From a virus (lineage: Duplodnaviria > Heunggongvirae > Uroviricota > Caudoviricetes): a stretch of DNA of 64,000 nt. Below the pieces are notes generated by a model, which saw nothing but the letters and a program-made list of their open reading frames with translations, was not told where the DNA came from and searched no databases. The DNA is taken from IMG/VR virus record IMGVR_UViG_2740892439_000009; one strand, given 5' to 3'. Shown in pieces: positions 5,425 through 40,679 of this stretch (position 1 is its first letter; each line of letters opens with the position of its first letter). A program made the translations under genes and the position numbers.

Positions 5425-6581
5425 AAGGGCAGGTGACATCCCAGGCGTCTCAGCTGTCCTCTTTGACGTCCCAGGTGAATGATGCGTCTTCGAAGGTTGA
5501 TCAGATGGCGCAAACCATCACCAACAACGAGAAAACGCAGTCGTCGCTGAATACCAGCTTGCAGTCGCAAATTGATGCGCAGGCATCGGCAAACATCAAG
5601 AACCAGACGGAGTTGAATAACGCCACCACTTCGATGGCGGCAATTAAATCAACTCAGCAGACTCAGGCCACAACGATTAGTGCACTGTCTCAGCAGCAAA
5701 CGAATTTAACGGCCCAGGTAGGAGGCCAGTCAGCCGAGCTGCAGGAGCTGAAGAAAACGGTTGTTGAAAACGGCAACGTTAACAGCACCTGGATGGTCAA
5801 AATGGAAACCAACAGCAACGGTAAAAAGTATGCTGCTGGTATAGCTTTAGGTATCGATGGCAAAAATTTGCAGAGCCAGTTTCTGGTTCAGGCTGATCGC
5901 TTCGGCTTAATCAACACCTCTAACGGGAATACGACTACACCTTTCGTTATCGAAAATGGCGTTGCGTATATTAATGCCGCTGTCATTAAAGATGGCTCGA
6001 TCACCAATGCGAAAATTGGAGGCGAAATCCGTTCTGACAATTTCGTTAATGGTTCAAATGGCTGGAGAATTGGAAAAGACGGTAGTTCACAGTTCAACAA
6101 TGCGATATTCAGAGGTCATATTGAAGCGCGCAGTGGTACGTTCAAAGGAACCCTGGAAGCTCAAAACTTTATTGGTGATATCGCTGTAGCTCGGCGTTAT
6201 GCGGATTTATCGTTCCGTCGTAACAACACCGTACAGCGTGATGGTCGTTACCAGAACCGCGGATACGGTATGACTATTGTGCTAAGTTGTACCCTGATAT
6301 ATCAGGTTACTGGGGGGAATGAGGATCGTAACGGTTATATTGTTGAAATGACATTTAACGTTGGCGGTCAGGAGGTAACTCGCCGTTTCCCGATCAACCC
6401 GCGAATGAATATGGGCTCCTACTCGATGGAGTTTCGTTTTGCAGCGGATATTCCAGGCAACTATGACAACGTCCCGTTCTTTGTAAGAGCACGTGGTCGG
6501 GATGCTACTTGGGACTACCAGTGTTATGTAGAAAACATCACTGCCACTGCTTTCCGTACAAACAGCAACTCATTCAGCTAA
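5205..6581 (+). CDS. LtfA continuation in the -1 frame (C-terminal coiled-coil and distal tip domain)
   Basis: This frame carries the expected module end TGTGTPGYDLYIDDVVVTDITDA, then a further coiled-coil repeat and a beta-rich C-terminal domain. A hairpin GGCGCCCC..GGGGCGCC follows the stop. Confidence 0.7.
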   Translation: MEEIHRYAPCSRWPHSRRILGIYRGTTGTGTPGYDLYIDDVVVTDITDAKEAQDSANSNASALTSLTSRVTNVEGQVTSQASQLSSLTSQVNDASSKVDQMAQTITNNEKTQSSLNTSLQSQIDAQASANIKNQTELNNATTSMAAIKSTQQTQATTISALSQQQTNLTAQVGGQSAELQELKKTVVENGNVNSTWMVKMETNSNGKKYAAGIALGIDGKNLQSQFLVQADRFGLINTSNGNTTTPFVIENGVAYINAAVIKDGSITNAKIGGEIRSDNFVNGSNGWRIGKDGSSQFNNAIFRGHIEARSGTFKGTLEAQNFIGDIAVARRYADLSFRRNNTVQRDGRYQNRGYGMTIVLSCTLIYQVTGGNEDRNGYIVEMTFNVGGQEVTRRFPINPRMNMGSYSMEFRFAADIPGNYDNVPFFVRARGRDATWDYQCYVENITATAFRTNSNSFS

Positions 6582-6637
6582 CATGGCGCCCCTTTGGGGC
6601 GCCCACTAAACCGTATTAACTCAAGGAAGAGTAAATT

Positions 6638-6708
6638 ATGGCAATGTATGAAGTTGGCACCATAACGGGTGCTGCAAACCAGGCAAAGGTTACAGGTATT
6701 TCCACTAA
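6638..6708 (+). CDS. N-terminal segment of second tail fibre (LtfB-like), separated from the body by a -1 frame change
   Basis: ATG preceded by AAGGAAG; encodes MAMYEVGTITGAANQAKVTGISTK, a fibre-like N-terminus. The downstream ORF in the -1 frame opens exactly here. Confidence 0.45.
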
Positions 6709-8076
6709 GTGTCGGAGACCGCCCTGGGTATTCAAGAGGGTTCGATTCTTGTCATTTATCGCAATGGAAGTGCCGATCTGTATGCCATCAAATCCGTTAA
6801 TAACGACACTCAACTGACCCTGACGAGAAACATTACAACAGCTTTTTCTGGTGCGAAATATGGAATTATCACATCAGAAACAGCCAGCACATCGTCTTTT
6901 GCTAATCAACTCGCCAGTGCATTCACTCTGTGGCGTAATGTTGTCCAGGGGTGGTCTACAGCACTAACAGGTAGTGGCAATATTACAATAACAGACCCTT
7001 TAACGGGTGTATCTGTGACTGTTCCAGCAATTTCAGGAATGGCGAAAGCGTCCGATCTCACAGCACTTAGCAACTCGCTGAAAGATGTAGCGAAGACTAC
7101 AACGGCAAACACATGGACGCAGGCGCAGACGTGGAACGCAGCATCTACGTTTAAAAATAACCTTACGGTGAACGGCACTTTTACAGTAAATGGGAATTTC
7201 TACGGCAAGCAGCTTGCTGGAGGCCACATAGAGTTAACAGGGGCGACCCCTTATATCGACTTTCACCACGGCAACACCACAACAGACTACACACATCGAA
7301 TTATTACTGAGAATGGGGCATTGGCTGTTTATCCGGGCTTACGCGTCCGTGGTGGATTGGGGATTTATGGTGTAGCTACGCAATACGGAGATCAGTACGG
7401 GCAGGGATTTATCACCCGTCTTAACACAGATCCAGGTAACGTAGCTAACGGCACAATCATTGCCTCTCCACGCGTCACAACTAGGTTCAACACTCGCGGC
7501 AGTGACACAAATGTTGACGGCGGACAGGGGGCCATGTGGTTTGAGGAGCAGGTGGGGACGAACCATAGGCTGGTATTCATGCTTGGTGGTTTCAGTCAGC
7601 CTGTCCAATATTGGCAACACTTGCCTGATGGGCGGATCTATAGTAGTTCTCGCGGCGATGTTGCATTTAACGGGACGTCCGACGAACGGTTGAAACATAG
7701 TATAGAACCGACTGACGGCCATTTGTCAGTCGATCGCATTCGTCAGCTTGAGCTGGTGACGTTCGTCTATAACGATGACGAGCAGGAACGAGTACGCCGC
7801 GGGATTATTGCGCAGCAGGCTCAGCTGGTCGACAAACAGTATGTTAAGCAGATTAACACATCGTATATTCTCAACGGTGAGAAAGTGGACGATGACCGTC
7901 TGCAACTCGATAATAACGTTATTCTAATGGATACATTGGCGGCGGTTAAAGTACTGATTCAGCGAGTTGAAGAACTTGAGAATAAACTTAACTCATCAGA
8001 AGGGAGCGACGCCATAAATACAAACCAGAATACCTTCGATACAGGCGTGGCCATGAGAAGTGAGCAATCAAATTAA
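6709..8076 (+). CDS. Tail fibre protein with C-terminal intramolecular chaperone (peptidase S74-type) domain
   Basis: C-terminal SDERLKHSIEP..IRQLELVTFVYNDDEQERVRRGIIAQQAQ matches the autoproteolytic chaperone signature of phage fibres and endosialidases; glycine-rich beta region upstream. Confidence 0.8.
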   Translation: MSETALGIQEGSILVIYRNGSADLYAIKSVNNDTQLTLTRNITTAFSGAKYGIITSETASTSSFANQLASAFTLWRNVVQGWSTALTGSGNITITDPLTGVSVTVPAISGMAKASDLTALSNSLKDVAKTTTANTWTQAQTWNAASTFKNNLTVNGTFTVNGNFYGKQLAGGHIELTGATPYIDFHHGNTTTDYTHRIITENGALAVYPGLRVRGGLGIYGVATQYGDQYGQGFITRLNTDPGNVANGTIIASPRVTTRFNTRGSDTNVDGGQGAMWFEEQVGTNHRLVFMLGGFSQPVQYWQHLPDGRIYSSSRGDVAFNGTSDERLKHSIEPTDGHLSVDRIRQLELVTFVYNDDEQERVRRGIIAQQAQLVDKQYVKQINTSYILNGEKVDDDRLQLDNNVILMDTLAAVKVLIQRVEELENKLNSSEGSDAINTNQNTFDTGVAMRSEQSN

Positions 8077-27667: not shown

Positions 27668-29047
27668 ATGTCTAAAAAACGTTCCATCAAAGAGGTTCAG
27701 GACTTCCGTGACAGTGTAAAACGAGTAGTCGCTCTCCTTTCAGGTAAAAACATCCCTGTTGCAGAACGAGGGGACGACGCTTATGTACGCTATAACGATG
27801 ATGGAGAGCCAATTCTCGTAAACATCCCATCAATCCCGGATAACGCAACACCGGCATTGATGAATGCTGTGCGCGGATTTCTCGATCATGAGGTTGCTCA
27901 CATTTTGTTTACCGATATTCGTGTGTCCAACAAAATGAGAGAAAAAGGACGCGTTCCTTCCTGGTCGCTATGGAATGCCTTAGAAGACGTGTTCATCGAG
28001 CGAAAAATGGGGCAGGTCTTTAACGGAACAAGACGTAATCTGATGGCAACTCAGCGCCTTATAATCGAAAAAGTCTTTAAACCAAAGGCTTCAGAGGCTA
28101 TTGCTTATTGTGGCAAAGATCAGCGCGCGCTTTTTCTAAACTTCTTTCTCTGTCCGGTTGTAAGAGCCTGGGATGGCCAAGCACCGTTCGTAGATTTCAT
28201 GGATGAATATTGGCCTGTCATTGAGAAACCAATTTCATTATTAAAAGAACATGGTATCGATGTGGCCGTGCGTAACATGTCTTGCACCGAGGATTGTGTA
28301 AAGGTGGCTGCGACCATAGCTAAGATCCTCAAAGACACTGAAAGTGAAAGCAAAGGTAAGGAGTCAGCTCCGGGAAAAACTTCCGATCCTTCAGACGCTG
28401 ACCAGACGGATGCCTCTGGAGAAAACAATGAAGACAACGAAGATCATGAGACACCCTCATCGTTAGATAATCACAAATCTATCGAATCAGAATCACATAG
28501 TAAGCACAAACATGATAATAACGACAGCGATGATTCAGATAATTCTGAATCATCAGAAACAATATTCGATGATACAGAAAATGATAAAGAGGTATCAGAT
28601 TCTGATGCTTCTGATAACGCGGCGTCAGAATCATTAACCGCTGACCACGAAAAAAGAAAAACGACAGAAGACGGCTCTTCAGATATCCCAACTCCGTCAA
28701 AAATGAGTCTGGAAGAGGCTTTAGAGGAGCTGGATAGCATAGAAGATGAAGTCGGAGGCATGACAGAAGATGCTCTATCCGAAACGATTAAAAGCGAGTT
28801 AACAGAAAGCTCGAAAAGCGAATACAGGCCATACAATCGCTCATACGACTTCATCGGCTCGATTGATCAGGCAGAAGCCATATCAAACGGCTTATTAAAA
28901 CATTCTCCGATATTGATTTGGGAGGATATCCAATCAGCCGCTATCGCATCGTTCCTGAAGGCAACCAGCTCTTCGACAAATATATTGAAAAGCATCTTTC
29001 GTCAGGTGTTTCGTCGACGCTGGCAAAAGACCTGGAGCGAGCAATAG
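27668..29047 (+). CDS. CobT-like protein, N-terminal segment with acidic low-complexity linker (frame lost near 28915)
   Basis: Paired with a downstream vWA segment and a CobS-like AAA ATPase; highly acidic D/E/S-rich middle region. Confidence 0.5.
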   Translation: MSKKRSIKEVQDFRDSVKRVVALLSGKNIPVAERGDDAYVRYNDDGEPILVNIPSIPDNATPALMNAVRGFLDHEVAHILFTDIRVSNKMREKGRVPSWSLWNALEDVFIERKMGQVFNGTRRNLMATQRLIIEKVFKPKASEAIAYCGKDQRALFLNFFLCPVVRAWDGQAPFVDFMDEYWPVIEKPISLLKEHGIDVAVRNMSCTEDCVKVAATIAKILKDTESESKGKESAPGKTSDPSDADQTDASGENNEDNEDHETPSSLDNHKSIESESHSKHKHDNNDSDDSDNSESSETIFDDTENDKEVSDSDASDNAASESLTADHEKRKTTEDGSSDIPTPSKMSLEEALEELDSIEDEVGGMTEDALSETIKSELTESSKSEYRPYNRSYDFIGSIDQAEAISNGLLKHSPILIWEDIQSAAIASFLKATSSSTNILKSIFRQVFRRRWQKTWSEQ

Positions 29048-29775
29048 CAAGCAGAAACAGAGTTCAGTTTATACCGGGCCAGCGTCGGGGGCGCATTCAT
29101 GGTTCTAGTATCTACAGATTAGCAATGAATGATGATCGCGTGTTTCGTAAAAAAGAAGAATCTAAAGCCGTTAACGCCTGTGTTCAACAAGTGATTGATT
29201 TATCAGGTTCAATGAGTGGTATAACGATACAATTGGCTCTTGCAAGTGCATATACCATCGCCGATGCCCTTGATCGAATAAATGTTCCCAACATTATCAC
29301 CGGCTTCACTACATTTGGTAGTCATATGGCGGCAGGAGAACTTAAGGCTGTCAAGTATGAGTTCTCTCGCTTTGAATCTTTAATGCTACCTATCATCAAA
29401 AATTGGAATGAAAAGGTAAATTCTCGCGAAGTTCGCTCACGTATGGGGTGCGTAGGCTACACATTCCCACTTCTTAATAACGTGGATGGTGAAAGCATAG
29501 CCAGCCTTGCATCGTTATTTTCCGGTCGCATGGAGGACAGGAAGATCATGCTTGTTCTGAGTGACGGCGCGCCGTGGGCTGTTGGGAGAGGTTTTGACGC
29601 TCATTTGCGTTCGGTTGCGAAGCAAATTGAAACGCAGACTGACATTGATTTGATGGCAATTGGCATCATGACTGACGCACCGGAGAGATTTTACTCAAAT
29701 CATGCCCTGGTAACGAGCGTTGATAGTCTTGGTTCATCTGTAGTTACTGAACTATCTCGTATCATTTTGAAGTGA
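28918..29775 (+). CDS. von Willebrand factor A domain segment (CobT-like C-terminus, -1 frame)
   Basis: MIDAS motif VIDLSGSMSG. Confidence 0.65.
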   Translation: MGGYPISRYRIVPEGNQLFDKYIEKHLSSGVSSTLAKDLERAIASRNRVQFIPGQRRGRIHGSSIYRLAMNDDRVFRKKEESKAVNACVQQVIDLSGSMSGITIQLALASAYTIADALDRINVPNIITGFTTFGSHMAAGELKAVKYEFSRFESLMLPIIKNWNEKVNSREVRSRMGCVGYTFPLLNNVDGESIASLASLFSGRMEDRKIMLVLSDGAPWAVGRGFDAHLRSVAKQIETQTDIDLMAIGIMTDAPERFYSNHALVTSVDSLGSSVVTELSRIILK

Positions 29776-29870
29776 ATAAAACAGCCTTAATGATAAGTAA
29801 CCACTTACGATAGTTAATGGTATATTTATATAAGAAGTTGAACGCTCATTAGAGAACAAAGGAAAAACGC

Positions 29871-31106
29871 ATGACGACTACTGCACTGCAAAATGAAAAA
29901 AATCATTCTGATTACCTTGTTTGCAAGTGGTGCGGCAAATCATTTCACTATTTTAAGTCCCATGTAGCCAATGGTAATTGCGAGGGCATTCCTGAGTCAG
30001 TAAAAGATGCCGATCCTGACACCGTACTGAAAATGTACACAACGCAGTTTCCAGATGAACCAACGCTATCGAAAAAGGCACTTGATGCAATTCAAGCTAA
30101 ACGTGCCGAGCAAAAAAGCGAAATGGCCAAATCTTCTAGCTTGACCAGTAGCCCTGGCTACACAGGCACAGTTGAGTACAAGACAGATCTGGTCGCAGCT
30201 CACGAACTGCTAAACGTAACGGTGGAAGAACTCGGAACAAAACGTGGGACGCCGCTCATGGTTAGCGTCAACGTCAATACGCCGTATCCAGAGTTCGTTC
30301 CCGAAGTGAAGAAAGGCTACGTATATGGCGACTTCGAACTGATCAAAGATATTTTCATGATGCTTGAACTTGGCATACCTGGCTATTTGTGGGGTCATGC
30401 AGGAACAGGCAAATCGTCATTGCCTACACAGCTATGTGCTTTGCTCAATCGTCCGTTGATCCGTGCCCAACATACAGCATCAATGGAAGAGGCACATGTT
30501 ACGGGGCAAATTCTGGCGCGTGATGGCTCTACGTATTTCGAACCTGGCTTGCTTGCGCTCGCAATGAAGCATGGCTGGGTTTACCTCGCGGATGAATACG
30601 ACTTTGCGTTTCCACAAATTCTTGGCGTGTATCAGCCAGTGCTGGAAGGTGAAGCGTTAGTCATCAAAGAGGCGACTCCAGAATGGCGTCGCATTACTCC
30701 GCATGAACGGTTTGCTTTCATTGGCACTGGCAACACGAACGGATCTGGTGATGAAACCGGCTTGTACCAGGGTACAAACATCCAGAACGCCGCGAACTTT
30801 TCGCGTTTTGGCATCGTTTCGAATGTGAAATACATGAGCAAAGACGCAGAGATCAACATGTTGATAAATGCCGGTATCGTGGATGAATACGCAGAAAAGA
30901 TGGTTAAGTTTGCCGGTATCGTTCGCGATGGATACGAAGAACACCTTATCAGTCAGCCAATTGGCCCTCGTGAACTTTTGTTGTCGGCCAAGATTGGAAT
31001 GATGCGAGGCGACTTTGTGACAGGTATTGAGCGTTCTTTCATTAACAAACTCCCTTCAGCTTCTGCACAAGCGGCTCGTGAAGTTGTTCAAAAAATATTT
31101 GGTTGA
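29871..31106 (+). CDS. CobS/MoxR-like AAA+ ATPase
   Basis: Walker A GHAGTGKSS, Walker B VYLADEYD; conserved start context AAAGGAAAAACGCATG. Confidence 0.7.
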   Translation: MTTTALQNEKNHSDYLVCKWCGKSFHYFKSHVANGNCEGIPESVKDADPDTVLKMYTTQFPDEPTLSKKALDAIQAKRAEQKSEMAKSSSLTSSPGYTGTVEYKTDLVAAHELLNVTVEELGTKRGTPLMVSVNVNTPYPEFVPEVKKGYVYGDFELIKDIFMMLELGIPGYLWGHAGTGKSSLPTQLCALLNRPLIRAQHTASMEEAHVTGQILARDGSTYFEPGLLALAMKHGWVYLADEYDFAFPQILGVYQPVLEGEALVIKEATPEWRRITPHERFAFIGTGNTNGSGDETGLYQGTNIQNAANFSRFGIVSNVKYMSKDAEINMLINAGIVDEYAEKMVKFAGIVRDGYEEHLISQPIGPRELLLSAKIGMMRGDFVTGIERSFINKLPSASAQAAREVVQKIFG

Positions 31107-31285
31107 TCGTGCGTAAAGGATGTTTCGGCTCTCTTATCGCTGCTTCTGAAACTGGTAAGGCTTGTCTGGTGTGTCCAGACAAGCCCGATTGTCACCAATC
31201 AGCAAAAGAAGTTGCGATTTCGATGCATGGGAAGTTCGTAGCTTCCCCAATGACAAAATCAAAAAAACCAGAAAGGTAAAAACAC

Positions 31286-34200
31286 ATGAAGGCACTGATG
31301 GTTCGAACTGACTTCTCACTTGGGGAGTCGGCTTTAAAAGCAGAAAACGCGGTGAAGATTGCCAGAGAAGCTGGCTACACCGCTGTAATTTCAGCAGATA
31401 GCATGAATATTGCGAGCGTTATTCCACTACAACGTGCCGCTGGTGACGACATGGCGGTTATTTGTGGTGTGAAACTAAACATTGTTGATGATCCCACATA
31501 CGAGCACCGGGTTAAACTTGCTAAAGAATCTATGAGATGTATGGAATCATTAGAGCGGGGACGTAACTACTCGTTTACCGCTCTAATTAAAAATGAGCAA
31601 GGATATCGCGACATCTGCGAACTAATGACGGTGGCCAACACACGAGAACAGTTCTACTTTGTACCGCGTCTCTCGCTCGAACAGTTGGTTTCTACATATG
31701 CCAAAGGCAACATCATCCTGCTCACTTCCGACATCGGTAGCGTGTTCCAACGCAACGATTTTGCAAAAATCATAAGCTCACTGATTACAGCGGGCGGGAA
31801 AGACAACTTCTATAGCGTGGTTTATCCGCACCCTACCCCATTCTACGACCAGATTAACGTCCGGGCGATGAAAGTCGCCAGCGCATTGAAAATAGAGCCA
31901 GTGGCGTTCTATCCCGCTTATTACGAATCGATCGACGATGCAGACATTAAAGACATTGCGCACATGGTTACGAACAACATAAAAATCGACCAGCCGCATC
32001 GTCTGCGTATCCCCCACCAGCGAGATAACGCCATCAATGGTCGTCGCCATCTCCTTGAGGCGCTTAAAGCCTTCTCCGTTCGCATGGATGTGCCGGTAAC
32101 AGCTGCAATGGCCTCAACAACGCAGGACTCCATTATCGATGCCTGCACATGGCGCTGGCATGAATTGCCACCAGCACTGCCCAAGATGGCAGACGACGAA
32201 CCTGCAACGCTGATGAAACTGGCTGTTGCAGGGCTGCGTAAACGTCTTACCACAAAAGAGTTTGGATACACACCACCTGCTTCTGAGAACAGGGTTTATG
32301 TTGAGCGGCTAAAGTACGAAATGGACACGCTGACTCGCCTGGGATTCTGTGGTTACTTCCTGATGGTACGCGATCTGATGAATCACAGCCGTGAAACTGG
32401 CATTCCTGTCGGGCCTGGTCGTGGTTCCTCTGCCGGTTCTCTGGTGGCGTGGTGCATAGGCATAACCAACGTCGACCCAATCCGTCACGGTCTTCTGTTT
32501 GAGCGTTTCATCAACCCTGAGCGTCTCGACTTGCCGGATGCGGACTTGGACTTCAGCCAGGCACGTCGCCATGAGGTGATCGAGTATCTGAATGAACGCT
32601 ACGGCGAAGATTACGTTGCAGGCATTCCGAACTTCACCTATCTGGGCGCGGCATCTGCGCTGCGTGACACTGCACGTATTTACGGTGTCGATGCTGCGGA
32701 TATGGCGGTATCCAAAGAGTTCAAGAATATGGAGGACGACAGCCTGTCTCTGGAAGAGCTGCGCGAGCAACTGGCCAGCCTGGACAAATACGCCACGAAA
32801 AACCCGGAAGCGTTCAAAGCGGCGTGTAAGCTGCAAAGCCTGATGCGTGGTTTTGGTCGTCACGCTGCGGGGATGATCGTCGCTGGCGTTCCATTAGTAG
32901 AGCGCACGCCCGTCGAGCTGCGTGGCAATGCTCGATGTATTGCGTTCGATAAACGTTACTGCGAGGCGATGGGGCTGATTAAGTTGGACGTTCTCGGTCT
33001 GGCAACACTCGATCTTCTGGATAGCGCGAAACGCTACATCAAAGAGAGTACCGGTGAATACATCAATCTCGACGCTATCCCACTGGACGATCGCAAGGTT
33101 CTGGATGGGTTCGCTGCAGGGTACACGCAGGGCGTATTCCAGCTGGAGTCCGGCCCCATGCGTAAGCTGCTTAAAGATCTGGGCGGTGGCATCGAGCCAA
33201 TGAGTTTCAAAACCGTTGTCGCAACTACCGCCCTCTTCCGACCGGGACCGATTCAATCCGGCATGTTGGATGACTATGTTTCCGTTGCGAAAGGATTTAT
33301 GACGCCTACATCACTACATCCTGTCTTGGATGAACTGACCTCTGAAACAAATGGAGTGATTCTCTATCAGGAACAAACGATGAACGCAACAAGGCTTCTT
33401 GCTGGTTTCACAATGGCCGAGGCGGATGGTGTGCGTTCAGCAATCGGTAAGAAGAACATGGAAAAGATGAGGAGCATGGGTGAGAAATTTGTCATTCAGG
33501 CTCAAGCTGGGTGGATCGACGTAGAGCTTGAAAATGGCGCAATACAACGGATTCATCGCGCAGAACATTTTAAATGCGAGGACGGTACTCTGAGGACAGT
33601 TGAAGAGGCGTTGGAGCATGGAGTGAAGCTGCCAATGCCAGTTGTGCGCGTTACAACGTCACATCCAGGTCTGTCTGAGACGAAGGCAAAAGAGATATGG
33701 ACTGCATTTGAGAAAAACGGAGCCTATCAGTTCAATAAATCACACTCCGTTGCTTATTCTTTAATCAGTTATCAGTCTATGTGGCTAAAGACGCACTACC
33801 CTGCTGAGTTCTTCGCAGCTGCGCTCACCATTCTGGGCGAGGATAAGCATCAGGGGCTGGTGAAGGATGCGCTGACCTATGGCATTCGCGTATTGCCACC
33901 AGACGTTAATGTGTCATCTAACCGAATTGAGATCCGCACACTCGAAGACGGCAGTCAGGCACTGTATGCGCCATTCTCTGCTGTGAAAGGCTGTTCTGAA
34001 AATGGTTGTCAGGCAATTATGCGTGCGCGTGAGAAAGTTGGTGGCAAATTCGAGTCAGTGGCACAATTCGATGAAGCGGTCGAGAAGCGTGCATGTAACA
34101 GTCGTGTACGCGAGTCGCTTCATAAAGTAGGGGCTTTTGCGTCAATTGAGCCAGGCAGTCTGCCAGCAACTGATCCTGAACGACTGCGCGACCAGGCTGA

Positions 34201-34804
34201 GCTGATGGGCAATCTCATCATTGACGCTGTTAAAGCATCACGTCCGTTCGAAATGAATCCTAAGCGTTCTGCCGAAATCAACGTACTCATGACACGTATG
34301 GCGGCTGAAATGGGCTTGGGTGAGGAGTTGATACGCCCGACTATTGGTATTAAACCCAAAATCATGATCATTCTGGACAATGCGAACGGCAATGACGCTC
34401 GTACCGGCTACTTCATGGAGAACGGATACGACGACTTTAAGGCAAAACTACTGACAGTTGGAGATCTGCGCATGGGCGATCTTTATGTCACGGGTGTTTG
34501 TAAGAAGGTTAAGGACAAAGAGAAAGACTATACCAAAGACGAGATAGGCCAGTTCACAGACTTTATGCGGGAAGAAATTAATCTTGTACGACCAACCTAC
34601 ATTTTGACGTGTGGTAGTCGTTCAACCGCACTATTTAACAATAAGAGTAAACCATCAGATCTGATTGGTCGTAAGGAGTACTTCCCAGAGCTTGATGCAA
34701 CCGTCTTCTACGGATTTAACCCGAATATCCTGTACTTCCGACCGGAAGAAGGAGAGCGACTGGAGGCCATTCTGGCTGATATCGCGGAGACAATAAATAA
34801 GTAA
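31286..34804 (+). CDS. dnaE: DNA polymerase III alpha subunit (DnaE-type, family C) with extra internal and C-terminal segments
   Basis: PHP N-terminus; core motifs GFCGYFLMVRDL, GPGRGSSAGSLVAWCIGIT, ATTALFRPGP, AYQFNKSHSVAYSL; 1172 aa. Confidence 0.9.
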   Translation: MKALMVRTDFSLGESALKAENAVKIAREAGYTAVISADSMNIASVIPLQRAAGDDMAVICGVKLNIVDDPTYEHRVKLAKESMRCMESLERGRNYSFTALIKNEQGYRDICELMTVANTREQFYFVPRLSLEQLVSTYAKGNIILLTSDIGSVFQRNDFAKIISSLITAGGKDNFYSVVYPHPTPFYDQINVRAMKVASALKIEPVAFYPAYYESIDDADIKDIAHMVTNNIKIDQPHRLRIPHQRDNAINGRRHLLEALKAFSVRMDVPVTAAMASTTQDSIIDACTWRWHELPPALPKMADDEPATLMKLAVAGLRKRLTTKEFGYTPPASENRVYVERLKYEMDTLTRLGFCGYFLMVRDLMNHSRETGIPVGPGRGSSAGSLVAWCIGITNVDPIRHGLLFERFINPERLDLPDADLDFSQARRHEVIEYLNERYGEDYVAGIPNFTYLGAASALRDTARIYGVDAADMAVSKEFKNMEDDSLSLEELREQLASLDKYATKNPEAFKAACKLQSLMRGFGRHAAGMIVAGVPLVERTPVELRGNARCIAFDKRYCEAMGLIKLDVLGLATLDLLDSAKRYIKESTGEYINLDAIPLDDRKVLDGFAAGYTQGVFQLESGPMRKLLKDLGGGIEPMSFKTVVATTALFRPGPIQSGMLDDYVSVAKGFMTPTSLHPVLDELTSETNGVILYQEQTMNATRLLAGFTMAEADGVRSAIGKKNMEKMRSMGEKFVIQAQAGWIDVELENGAIQRIHRAEHFKCEDGTLRTVEEALEHGVKLPMPVVRVTTSHPGLSETKAKEIWTAFEKNGAYQFNKSHSVAYSLISYQSMWLKTHYPAEFFAAALTILGEDKHQGLVKDALTYGIRVLPPDVNVSSNRIEIRTLEDGSQALYAPFSAVKGCSENGCQAIMRAREKVGGKFESVAQFDEAVEKRACNSRVRESLHKVGAFASIEPGSLPATDPERLRDQAELMGNLIIDAVKASRPFEMNPKRSAEINVLMTRMAAEMGLGEELIRPTIGIKPKIMIILDNANGNDARTGYFMENGYDDFKAKLLTVGDLRMGDLYVTGVCKKVKDKEKDYTKDEIGQFTDFMREEINLVRPTYILTCGSRSTALFNNKSKPSDLIGRKEYFPELDATVFYGFNPNILYFRPEEGERLEAILADIAETINK

Positions 34805-34807
34805 TAA

Positions 34808-34836
34808 AGAAAACCCGCCTGTTGGCGGGTTTATAA
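34808..34836 (+). terminator. Rho-independent terminator
   Basis: AAACCCGCC..GGCGGGTTT hairpin. Confidence 0.6.
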
Positions 34837-39605: not shown

Positions 39606-40679
39606 ATGGCAAAAGGAAAATCCGCACTGGCACTTGCTCTGAAAAAGAAAATCGGTAGCAACGACGAAATTCAGAAAGTAACTCATTGGATTGACACAGG
39701 CTTTCCTCCGTTAAACAAAGCTATTTCTGGTCGTTACGATGGCGGCTTCCCATGTGGTCGTATCGTCGAAGTATTCGGTCCTCCAAGCGCGGGGAAAACG
39801 TTCCTTGCAACAGCAGCGATGATCTCCGCTCAAAAACAAGATGGTCTGGCGGTATTCCTCGATCATGAAAACAGTTTTGACGTTGGCCTGGCTGTAGCCA
39901 ATGGCCTGAACGCAGATGAGGATGACGGTCAGTGGGTATACAAGCAGCCAGATACCTTCGAAGACTCTGTAGAGTTGATCGGCACAATACTTAAATTGGT
40001 TCGTGATGAAGAGCTTATCCCCGAATCAGCACCTATCTGTATCGTGGCTGACTCTCTTGCGTCTATGGTTCCGAACTCCAAAGCCGAGAAGTTCGAAAAG
40101 ATGGCTGAAGGCACTGCCAAAGACAAAGATCAGCTAAACATGAACGACAATACGGCACTGGCTCGTGCGACGAGTGCGAACTTCCCTACTCTGGCTTTGT
40201 GGGCACGCAAATACAACGCCTGCATCATCTTCTTGAATCAGGTTCGCACAAAAATCGGTGTAATGTTTGGCGACCCTACTACGTCGCCAGGTGGAGATTC
40301 ACCGAAGTTCTACGCTTCTGTACGTATCCGTCTTGGTGCATCGGTGATGAAGGATGGTAAAGAGAAGATCGGCCAGGACGTAGGCGCAGAATGCATCAAA
40401 AACAAAGTTGCACCACCGTATGGCAAATGCACCTGGAAATTCTACTTCGATCCTACTCGTGGCCTCGACGTTATCGAATCGCTCGTCGAGTACATGCTGG
40501 AAGAAGGATACCTGCCAAAGAACGCCAGCGGGCGAGTTGAAATTGGTGACAAGAAATACACAAAATCGCAGATCGTCGAGATGTATCGGGAGAAGCCACT
40601 GGCTGAAATCATTGCGGCTTTGCAGGCAATCGACGACCGAAGAGCAAAAGACAACCCCACCGAGTCAGTAGAAGAGTAA
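39606..40679 (+). CDS. RecA/UvsX-like recombinase
   Basis: Walker A GPPSAGKT, RecA-like FLNQVR loop region; AAGGAG SD. Confidence 0.85.
   Translation: MAKGKSALALALKKKIGSNDEIQKVTHWIDTGFPPLNKAISGRYDGGFPCGRIVEVFGPPSAGKTFLATAAMISAQKQDGLAVFLDHENSFDVGLAVANGLNADEDDGQWVYKQPDTFEDSVELIGTILKLVRDEELIPESAPICIVADSLASMVPNSKAEKFEKMAEGTAKDKDQLNMNDNTALARATSANFPTLALWARKYNACIIFLNQVRTKIGVMFGDPTTSPGGDSPKFYASVRIRLGASVMKDGKEKIGQDVGAECIKNKVAPPYGKCTWKFYFDPTRGLDVIESLVEYMLEEGYLPKNASGRVEIGDKKYTKSQIVEMYREKPLAEIIAALQAIDDRRAKDNPTESVEE

Follow-up and report, generated by a model that had tools for sequence, protein, structure and literature searches.

What a phage gains from two genes that resemble the motor and adaptor subunits of the aerobic cobaltochelatase, and whether the seemingly unusual features of one such pair are genuine, are the questions raised by positions 27668-31106 of a 64,000-nucleotide (nt) stretch of tailed-phage DNA (IMG/VR record IMGVR_UViG_2740892439_000009; hereafter, the window). 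The locus encodes a CobT-like protein with a von Willebrand factor A (vWA) domain and a CobS-like AAA+ ATPase, and the CobT-like gene is interrupted by a frame break. As the best explanation, which we consider reasonably probable, we propose that the pair is a CobN-independent motor/adaptor of the MoxR class, possibly also a protease, which acts early and is not a chelatase, and that the frame break is artefactual. As an object the locus is ordinary: it is an already known and widely conserved CobT-like/CobS-like gene pair of an SSU5-type phage-plasmid, and its genes are 99% identical to thousands of database entries, with nothing new about them as objects.

The window is part of an SSU5-type phage-plasmid of Escherichia coli. 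In a nucleotide comparison, the 4-kb region around the pair showed 97.4-99.0% identity to Escherichia phages CMS-2020a, Cyrano, and PhiR41_1, and among 5426 complete E. coli genomes the CobT-like gene matched plasmids in 219 and the chromosome in none. The near-identity to these phages and the plasmid-only matches therefore assign the window to this type. Synteny, a partition system together with RepA, structural genes of a siphovirus, and a replication module that includes DnaE, all of which are features of SSU5-like elements, were found as well. Salmonella phage SSU5 was 74.5% identical to the window from the vWA domain onward. The plasmid NZ_CP075058 (107.5 kb, 122 annotated features) was used as a near-identical full-length relative for the examination of gene content.

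Three open reading frames (ORFs) were present at the locus: 27668-29047 (459 amino acids [aa]), 28918-29775 (285 aa, in a different frame), and 29871-31106 (411 aa). The first matched Pfam CobT (PF06213, E 3.5e-28) and the second matched Pfam CobT_C/vWA (PF11775, E 2.2e-83). These matches and ORFs bear out the pairing of a CobT-like vWA protein with a CobS-like AAA+ ATPase that had been read from this region by the original prediction. The features of the pair are as follows; the boundaries of the linker were set by hidden Markov models of the N- and C-domains.

27668..29775, + strand: CobT-like gene, 2108 nt here versus 2109 nt (702 aa) in relatives (1-nt deletion)
27668..28342, + strand: CobT N-domain, aa 1-225 (Pfam CobT, E 1.8e-21)
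28343..28819, + strand: acidic, Ser-rich linker, presumably disordered, aa 226-384 (composition and length statistics)
28820..29775, + strand: CobT C-domain, aa 385-702, with a 'shaft'-equivalent (roughly aa 450-500) and a vWA fold bearing MIDAS, the metal ion-dependent adhesion site
28878..28879, + strand: frame-break site, CC versus CCC in all compared relatives; reading continues in the -1 frame
29871..31106, + strand: CobS-like AAA+ ATPase, 411 aa, intact (Pfam AAA_5, E 2.1e-15; phrog_249)

The two genes lie on the same strand, 95 nt apart. In the CobS-like protein, Walker A (G175-K181, with G175, G178, G180, and K181), Walker B (D241-E242), sensor-1 (N288), the arginine finger (R312), and sensor-2 (R367) are all kept, and these ATPase residues, which were listed according to the CobSTN structure paper (bioRxiv 10.64898/2026.07.21.739949), are invariant across eight phage and canonical sequences. 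The MIDAS residues D511, S513, S515, N605, and D633 of the CobT-like protein, defined from the same paper, are likewise all conserved in an alignment with Brucella CobT (21vt/9uka). The closest solved structure to the CobS-like protein was Brucella CobS (PDB 9ujv, E 4.7e-26), and that to the vWA part of the CobT-like protein was the CobT of Brucella cobaltochelatase (E 8.6e-16). The segment preceding the vWA domain aligned with the 'shaft' of Brucella CobT that enters the CobS ring. In addition, CbbQ and NorQ were among the PDB matches of the CobS-like protein, and the combination that marks the MoxR class, an AAA_5-type ATPase with an adjacent, co-oriented gene for a MIDAS-bearing vWA protein, was found here.

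The intact CobT-like protein of 702 aa falls in a cluster of 3307 member sequences (P0001). The ratio of nonsynonymous to synonymous substitution rates among 25 distinct intact alleles was 0.15 in the N-domain, 0.35 in the linker, and 0.14 in the C-domain. These alleles were taken from a profile scan of viral contigs, the best 80 loci of which were mostly close SSU5-like relatives (38-99% identity). Judging from the ratios in the three parts, the CobT-like gene is therefore under purifying selection.

The recurrence of the pair in phages, which had also been claimed, was evident from CobS-like sequences in 494 phage records and from 1125 representative clusters of the N-domain family, defined at 50% identity. 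The 'peptidase' plus cobS pairs of T4-like cyanophages and pelagiphages and the pairs of ICP2, CRP-810, Nickievirus, and the Rhizobium RHph phages belong to the same phage-type subfamily, whose common traits are an N-domain with HExxH, an acidic linker, a vWA domain, an adjacent CobS-like ATPase, and a position in or near DNA-metabolism genes. These pairs differ from the window pair in having 16-40% identity to it and linkers of 84-321 aa. A profile scan of genome contigs with the CobT alignment recovered enterobacterial and other phage-like loci and standalone vWA proteins, and no canonical CobT; canonical CobT sequences were obtained by tblastn of a Brucella fragment against plasmids. Parablastomonas (5728-6675) and a Rhizobiales bacterium (5683-6717) encode standalone CobT_C-like vWA proteins of 315-344 aa with intact DxSGS, NIDGE, and SDGAP motifs and with neither the CobT N-domain nor the linker.

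Compared with canonical CobS, the CobS-like protein is longer at its N terminus by about 100-140 aa. This extension carries a zinc-finger-like motif, CKWCGKSFHYFKSHVANGNC (C-x2-C-x9-H-x5-C, aa 18-37, window 29922-29981), which is absent from canonical CobS. A related Cys/His motif, CEICGEEVHSIANHLKTAH, was found in the CobS-like protein of Pseudomonas phage phiK7B1, whereas in the Rhizobium phage only a degenerate form occurs and the CobS of ICP2 and the cyanophages has no such motif. It is limited to the SSU5-like and Nickievirus groups, of which phiK7B1 lacks HExxH in its CobT-like protein.

The N-domain of the CobT-like protein contains the motif HEVAH at aa 74-78 (H74, E75, and H78; nt 27887-27901), followed downstream by N103, E106, D107, and E111. 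H74, E75, H78, N103, D107, and E111 were invariant in 22 diverse phage-type sequences, including those of ICP2 and CRP-810 and the 'peptidases' of cyanophages and DLP_6. Motif and linker statistics were derived from the 127 full-length representatives among the best 150 of the 1125 clusters, and HExxH was present in all 127. In contrast, the canonical CobT proteins of Rhizobium and Cereibacter, each encoded beside cobS, contain HExxH nowhere; the helix aligned to the HExxH helix reads GDSMALRLACHD or ADAFALRRRYHD, so that residues of the SMALR or DAFALR type stand against the HExxH...ED..E of the phage N-domain. The catalytically dead M48C-like N-domain of the canonical CobT sequences examined is therefore not a trait of the window protein, which has HEVAH.

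An AlphaFold2 model of the N-domain (predicted local distance difference test score, 93.7; predicted template modeling score, 0.88) runs from alpha1 through a small beta-sheet into a helical bundle. HExxH lies on the first helix after the sheet (helix 62-81), and a later helix (residues 98-117) carries N103, E106, D107, and E111. This topology agrees with the described crystal structure of CobT_N, which its authors called M48C-peptidase-like (bioRxiv 10.64898/2026.07.21.739949). The two elements by which a zincin is recognized, HExxH on a helix and an acidic third ligand downstream, are both found in the N-domain. Its aa 72-128 matched phrog_459 'peptidase' (E 9.7e-8). A metallopeptidase domain fused to vWA beside a MoxR ATPase has been noted in T4-like jumbo phages (PMC7824862). 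Since the phage-type N-domain keeps the predicted zincin motif, it may also cleave a client.

Based on homology with the solved CobST/CobSTN complex, we infer the following mechanism, in which the assembly geometry, client remodeling, proteolysis, and timing, as well as the operon structure underlying it, are all inferential. The CobS-like protein would form an ATP-hydrolyzing hexameric ring, into which the segment of the CobT-like protein that precedes the vWA domain would insert as a shaft, while the N-domain would dock on the small AAA subdomain. A protein client would be held between the MIDAS face and the N-domain, at the place that CobN occupies in the true enzyme. ATP hydrolysis by the ring would then remodel the client, and the HExxH site might in addition cut it.

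The timing of this putative activity is suggested by the genes among which the pair lies. The cluster runs on one strand in the order small ORF (27357), CobT-like gene, CobS-like gene, 4-Cys ORF, and dnaE. Its further features and immediate borders are listed below.

26719..27105, - strand: helix-turn-helix regulator, annotated 'putative repressor' (Cyrano) or 'transcriptional regulator' (RefSeq plasmids), divergent from the cluster
27106-27356: AT-rich intergenic region of 250 nt between the repressor-like gene and the cluster
27357..27569, + strand: small conserved ORF, 70 aa (phrog_2627, E 8.5e-40), hypothetical in all relatives, directly upstream of the CobT-like gene
31103..31311, + strand: small 4-Cys ORF (phrog_6337, E 1.1e-29), 69 aa in relatives, overlapping the start of dnaE
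31286..34804, + strand: DNA polymerase III alpha subunit (DnaE), annotated in all relatives, last gene of the same-strand cluster
34811..34832: GC-rich palindromic hairpin directly after dnaE, likely a bidirectional terminator

A search of the + strand from 27357 to 34117 gave no terminator-like site, and the pair appears, from this arrangement, to be co-transcribed with the small upstream ORF, the 4-Cys ORF, and dnaE. A ParA-like gene, the genes of a DnaB-like helicase and DNA ligase, four tRNA genes, and the genes of glutaredoxin and an integrase lie upstream of the cluster, and those of a 5'-3' exonuclease and RepA lie downstream. The 4-Cys ORF (CFGS...CLVCPDKPDC) is nearly unchanged even in SSU5 and is better conserved than its neighbors; its product might be a partner protein for either DnaE or the CobST-like pair.

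Comparable neighborhoods were seen in other phages, as listed here (T, CobT-like gene; S, CobS-like gene; x, an intervening position).

Nickievirus phiK7B1: ligase ... T, S, x, DnaE
Rhizobium RHph_N1_10: pair upstream of DnaE
Stenotrophomonas BUCTxx99: helicase, primase ... T, S, x, recombinase, DnaE
Vibrio ICP2: T, S, then primase, helicase, PolA
Cyanophage S-SM1: gp47, gp46, 'peptidase', cobS, then gp45, gp44, gp62
Pelagiphage HTVC008M: pair about 2.3 kb upstream of the genes for the sliding clamp and the clamp loader
DLP_6: pair adjoins primase-helicase and ThyX

Because the pair lies within or beside replication genes in several lineages, its placement suggests expression with the replication genes rather than with the virion genes, and therefore an early, replication-phase role.

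The reading most readily drawn from the names of the two genes is that they are a genuine motor/adaptor of cobaltochelatase carried as an auxiliary metabolic gene, with the viral CobST hijacking a CobN-type subunit of the host and thereby raising the supply of cobalamin. Such a hijack, for example in aid of B12-dependent ribonucleotide reduction, has been proposed (PMC8651126). It has in its favor the clear homology to CobS and CobT and the intact ATPase and MIDAS residues, and it is a plausible idea for CobN-containing hosts, such as haloarchaea, some cyanobacteria, and alphaproteobacteria. Against this, the pair scored roughly a tenth of the NCBIfam equivalog cut-offs: 67.7 bits versus 759.05 for TIGR01651 (CobT) and 87 bits versus 558.55 for TIGR01650 (CobS). 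E. coli is not known to have a de novo (aerobic) corrin pathway, and Salmonella and Klebsiella reportedly use the anaerobic CbiK route, without CobN. No CobN-like product was found among the 122 annotated features of NZ_CP075058, and the ribonucleotide reductase that this plasmid encodes, along with thymidylate synthase and dihydrofolate reductase, is of class Ia, which is B12-independent. Furthermore, the phage type keeps HExxH, which the two canonical CobT proteins examined do not have. The earlier opinion that cobalt chelation is unlikely is thus upheld by the equivalog scores, the lack of an annotated CobN on the relative, and the class of its reductase. The pair is, by sequence comparison, homologous to the CobS motor and CobT adaptor of the aerobic cobaltochelatase, yet it almost certainly does not make vitamin B12 and is probably not a chelatase, and we regard the hijack of host CobN as highly improbable here. 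An alternative placed later in the lytic cycle, which we consider unlikely, is that the MoxR-vWA pair with its N-terminal metallopeptidase aids virion assembly and processes structural proteins. Such a role has been suggested for T4-like jumbo phages on the model of the MoxR/vWA pair that Acidianus two-tailed virus needs for tail development (PMC7824862); the domain architecture described there is the same as that of the window pair, and the HExxH motif is conserved. On the other hand, in the inspected lineages with identifiable neighbors, genes of replication and recombination, not structural genes, surround the pair or lie near it; in NZ_CP075058 the capsid, tail, and terminase genes form a separate block on the opposite strand that starts about 14 kb from the pair, and the pair is apparently co-transcribed with dnaE. 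Both the hijack and the assembly role were judged less likely for this element than a CobN-independent machine that acts early.

An early role would also suit a remodeler that serves host takeover or counter-defense by inactivating a host protein, such as a defense or nucleoid factor, either at an early stage of the lytic cycle or while the plasmid is being maintained. The early-gene position of the pair fits this idea, vWA-MoxR modules are common in conflict systems (PMC7159879), and the ED helix of the N-domain gave a weak profile match to the anti-CRISPR protein AcrIIA26. However, the strong conservation and low substitution ratios of the gene differ from the rapid turnover typical of counter-defense genes, and the pair is conserved across hosts with very different defense repertoires. 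A PADLOC scan gave no notable match, its single DrmE match (E 0.0026) being meaningless, and the AcrIIA26 match was unsupported by Foldseek. This alternative, too, has a small chance of being correct. A bolder version of the favored reading, which at present we find doubtful, holds that the phage-type pair is a distinct replication-phase accessory machine unrelated to cobalamin, in which an ATP motor and a vWA/MIDAS adaptor with an active zincin protease remodel or cleave a replisome-associated or host protein. If it were true, such a machine could let the phage polymerase take over the host clamp or replisome, and it would explain why the pair travels with DnaE or near clamp and clamp-loader genes in unrelated phages.

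Several observations weigh against an early-acting, possibly proteolytic machine. With respect to timing, the pair of Roseobacter phage CRP-810 lies near the genome end, beside small ORFs and the genes of endonuclease V and an integrase, and the synteny with DnaE among siphoviruses of about 105-120 kb may reflect shared ancestry rather than independent association. With respect to proteolysis, a Foldseek search of the N-domain model against PDB returned nothing with E<1, the CobT_N entries being possibly later than the library or undetected, and a search against BFVD placed IrrE-like and M48 peptidases weakly (probability 0.2-0.4), below many viral CobT-like proteins. A Pfam search of 27 N-domains at E<=1 gave the CobT family alone and no peptidase family. 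The putative zincin assignment is based on the motif and on the published M48C-like description of CobT_N. Moreover, in the CobT-like gene of Pseudomonas phage phiK7B1 (4847-6931), SEISK replaces HExxH, and both the gene and its CobS partner are kept; the predicted peptidase chemistry is therefore dispensable in at least one lineage and cannot be essential in every lineage. With respect to function as a whole, the searchable literature, including that on SSU5, pHCM2, pMT1, and anti-defense, contained no experimental datum for any phage CobST-like pair; it offered annotation-level statements and two hypotheses, in line with the original prediction, which had called the function in phages unknown. 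Finally, the 1-nt deletions described below might in principle mean that this one element is truly decaying.

The CobT-like gene had been described as split by a frame break near 28915. A frame break exists in the window, but its site is 28878-28879, about 40 nt upstream, and it is not a property of the gene at large. The window reads GAAGCCAT where relatives read GAAGCCCAT: one C is missing from a CCC run after codon 404, and in the alignment of the gene to its relatives this missing C was the sole length difference. Position 28918 is merely the first TTG of the downstream ORF as listed. In Cyrano, PhiR41_1, and the RefSeq plasmids, the gene is a single ORF of 2109 nt (702 aa), and 39 of the 40 best-matching E. 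coli plasmid copies span 2109 nt and are annotated as intact. The other copy, in NZ_CP027358, is frameshifted at a different homopolymer (GGGGG to GGGG).

When about 32 kb of the window containing 32 annotated genes was compared with NZ_CP075058, five of these genes were found to carry a lone, frame-destroying 1-nt deletion, and a sixth such deletion was found in a small unannotated ORF. The lone deletions outside the CobT-like gene are as follows.

About 16009: DnaB-like helicase
22771: in a T-run
About 31240: small conserved ORF between the CobS-like gene and dnaE; truncates the ORF
38422: 5'-3' exonuclease
41050: SPFH protein
43361: small ORF

The six ORF-breaking indels are all deletions, mostly in short base runs, and two are at CCTGG (Dcm) sites; outside these positions, the genes hit share 97-99.8% identity with the relative. 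Long-read assemblies that have not been polished show such a pattern. The six lone deletions in conserved ORFs therefore make a sequencing or assembly artefact, namely a 1-nt homopolymer deletion, the most probable cause of the frame break, as far as can be judged from sequence, and any frame break elsewhere in the window deserves distrust.

That the break is biological, either as a real inactivating mutation in a decaying element or as a programmed frameshift that yields two products, we consider very unlikely. In its favor, the given sequence does show the break, another E. coli plasmid copy bears a frameshift annotation, and a split cobT has been reported for the haloarchaeal virus HHTV-2; programmed frameshifting is also described for some chlD genes (Antonov 2020, as cited in PMC8651126). 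But the relatives have CCC and one continuous ORF, the site is unconserved, NZ_CP027358 is broken elsewhere, and five more lone 1-nt deletions occur in the window in otherwise highly similar genes. No slippery heptamer of the form X XXY YYZ was found at GCAGAAGCCATATC, and programmed ribosomal frameshifting was rejected because the site is not conserved and this heptamer is lacking.

The other feature that had attracted attention is the low-complexity region rich in D, E, and S. The region is real: the linker (aa 226-384) comprises 159 aa, of which 31% are D+E and 28% are S+T. It is not unusually long, as had been claimed, since the linker has a median length of 200 aa both in close SSU5-like relatives (144-247) and in the 127 representatives, which are at most 50% identical (56-337). 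It measures 238 aa in SSU5 and 321 aa in a Rhizobium phage. The linker of canonical CobT is likewise acidic and disordered, with a length of about 90 aa (bioRxiv 10.64898/2026.07.21.739949), and the sequence of Rhizobium CobT itself shows an acidic linker. In view of these medians and of canonical CobT, the acidic linker is therefore, by sequence, a family trait, and the window copy is on the short side for the phage type and longer only than canonical CobT. Both of the features that had seemed unusual thus fall away: the frame break looks artefactual, and the linker is typical of the family.

Comparison with characterized systems sets the pair apart in several respects. The Brucella melitensis CobSTN complex (PDB 9ujv, 9uka, 21vt, and 21vu) has the same two-protein layout of AAA+ motor and adaptor, and its CobT is built like the phage adaptor, from an N-domain, an acidic linker, and a shaft followed by vWA-MIDAS. 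Phage pair and cobaltochelatase CobST share their ATPase and MIDAS residues as well as the Pfam families CobT and CobT_C, and CobST gave the best PDB matches, whereas the phage element has no annotated CobN partner (in the annotation of NZ_CP075058) and the gene order is T then S in the phage pair and S then T in canonical loci. The MoxR/vWA pairs RavA-ViaA, CbbQ-CbbO, NorQ-NorD, and CoxD-CoxE and p618/p892 of Acidianus two-tailed virus also place an AAA_5-type ATPase beside a MIDAS vWA adaptor, which couples ATP hydrolysis to the remodeling of one dedicated client. They are more distant in sequence, their adaptors have no CobT N-domain or HExxH, and, unlike the phage pair, they have known clients (Rubisco, NorB, and others). 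The Mg-chelatase subunits BchI/ChlI and BchD/ChlD likewise pair the motor of a class I chelatase with a vWA adaptor whose linker is acidic, but BchD has an AAA-like N-domain rather than CobT_N and requires the H subunit. For chlD, a subunit generated by frameshifting is known, while the frame break in the CobT-like gene of the window is not conserved. FtsH-type AAA+ zincin proteases, with which only a functional analogy and no homology is claimed, combine an AAA+ ring with a HExxH metalloprotease module; FtsH carries the two modules on a single chain and threads its substrate through the pore, whereas the pore of CobST holds the adaptor's own shaft.

The family to which the pair belongs extends over T4-like cyanophages, in which the pair is reported within the core genome, pelagiphages, vibriophages, haloarchaeal viruses, and clinically common enterobacterial phage-plasmids. 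It is routinely labeled 'cobalamin/porphyrin biosynthesis' and tallied as an auxiliary metabolic gene. The absence of an annotated CobN, the class Ia reductase, the retained zincin motif, and the position of the pair in a replication module argue that the label is mistaken, at least for enterobacterial hosts. The lasting value of the locus thus lies in the function of the family, and SSU5-like elements in E. coli are a tractable system for finding it. In the annotation of phage Cyrano, the CobT-like protein is called 'dimethylbenzimidazole phosphoribosyltransferase' and the CobS-like protein 'cobalamin synthetase'. These labels confuse the pair with the unrelated enzymes named CobT and CobS in the Salmonella nomenclature, and the same confusion occurs in the CRP-810 paper (PMC11288001).

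The profile match between the N-domain and AcrIIA26 (PDB 9zq6_B) mentioned above was weak (E 0.0047) and covered aa 93-140 (about 27944-28087, 'LNFVEDNFIE...'). The AcrIIA26 residues E49 and D50, to which the N-domain is aligned, are essential for blocking the protospacer-adjacent-motif site of Cas9 (PMC13089141). As a lead to DNA mimicry or counter-defense, this likeness was set aside as probably due to chance, Foldseek giving it no support.

Other parts of the element and its relatives yielded a few minor observations. A Yersinia pestis NCTC5923 contig of about 108 kb carries a full-length CobT-like gene with 59% identity, which fits the known kinship of pMT1/pFra with pHCM2/SSU5-type elements. 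The tRNA genes of the window (22080-22636; Asn-GTT, Tyr-GTA, Thr-TGT, and Ser-TGA) lie upstream of the integrase and repressor genes, and relatives keep three or four of them. At about 39795-39797, the window does not have a 1,263-bp segment that is present in NZ_CP075058 within a gene annotated as 'LAGLIDADG family homing endonuclease' (32128-33390 of the compared stretch); this difference suggests that an intein or homing endonuclease is polymorphic for presence or absence.

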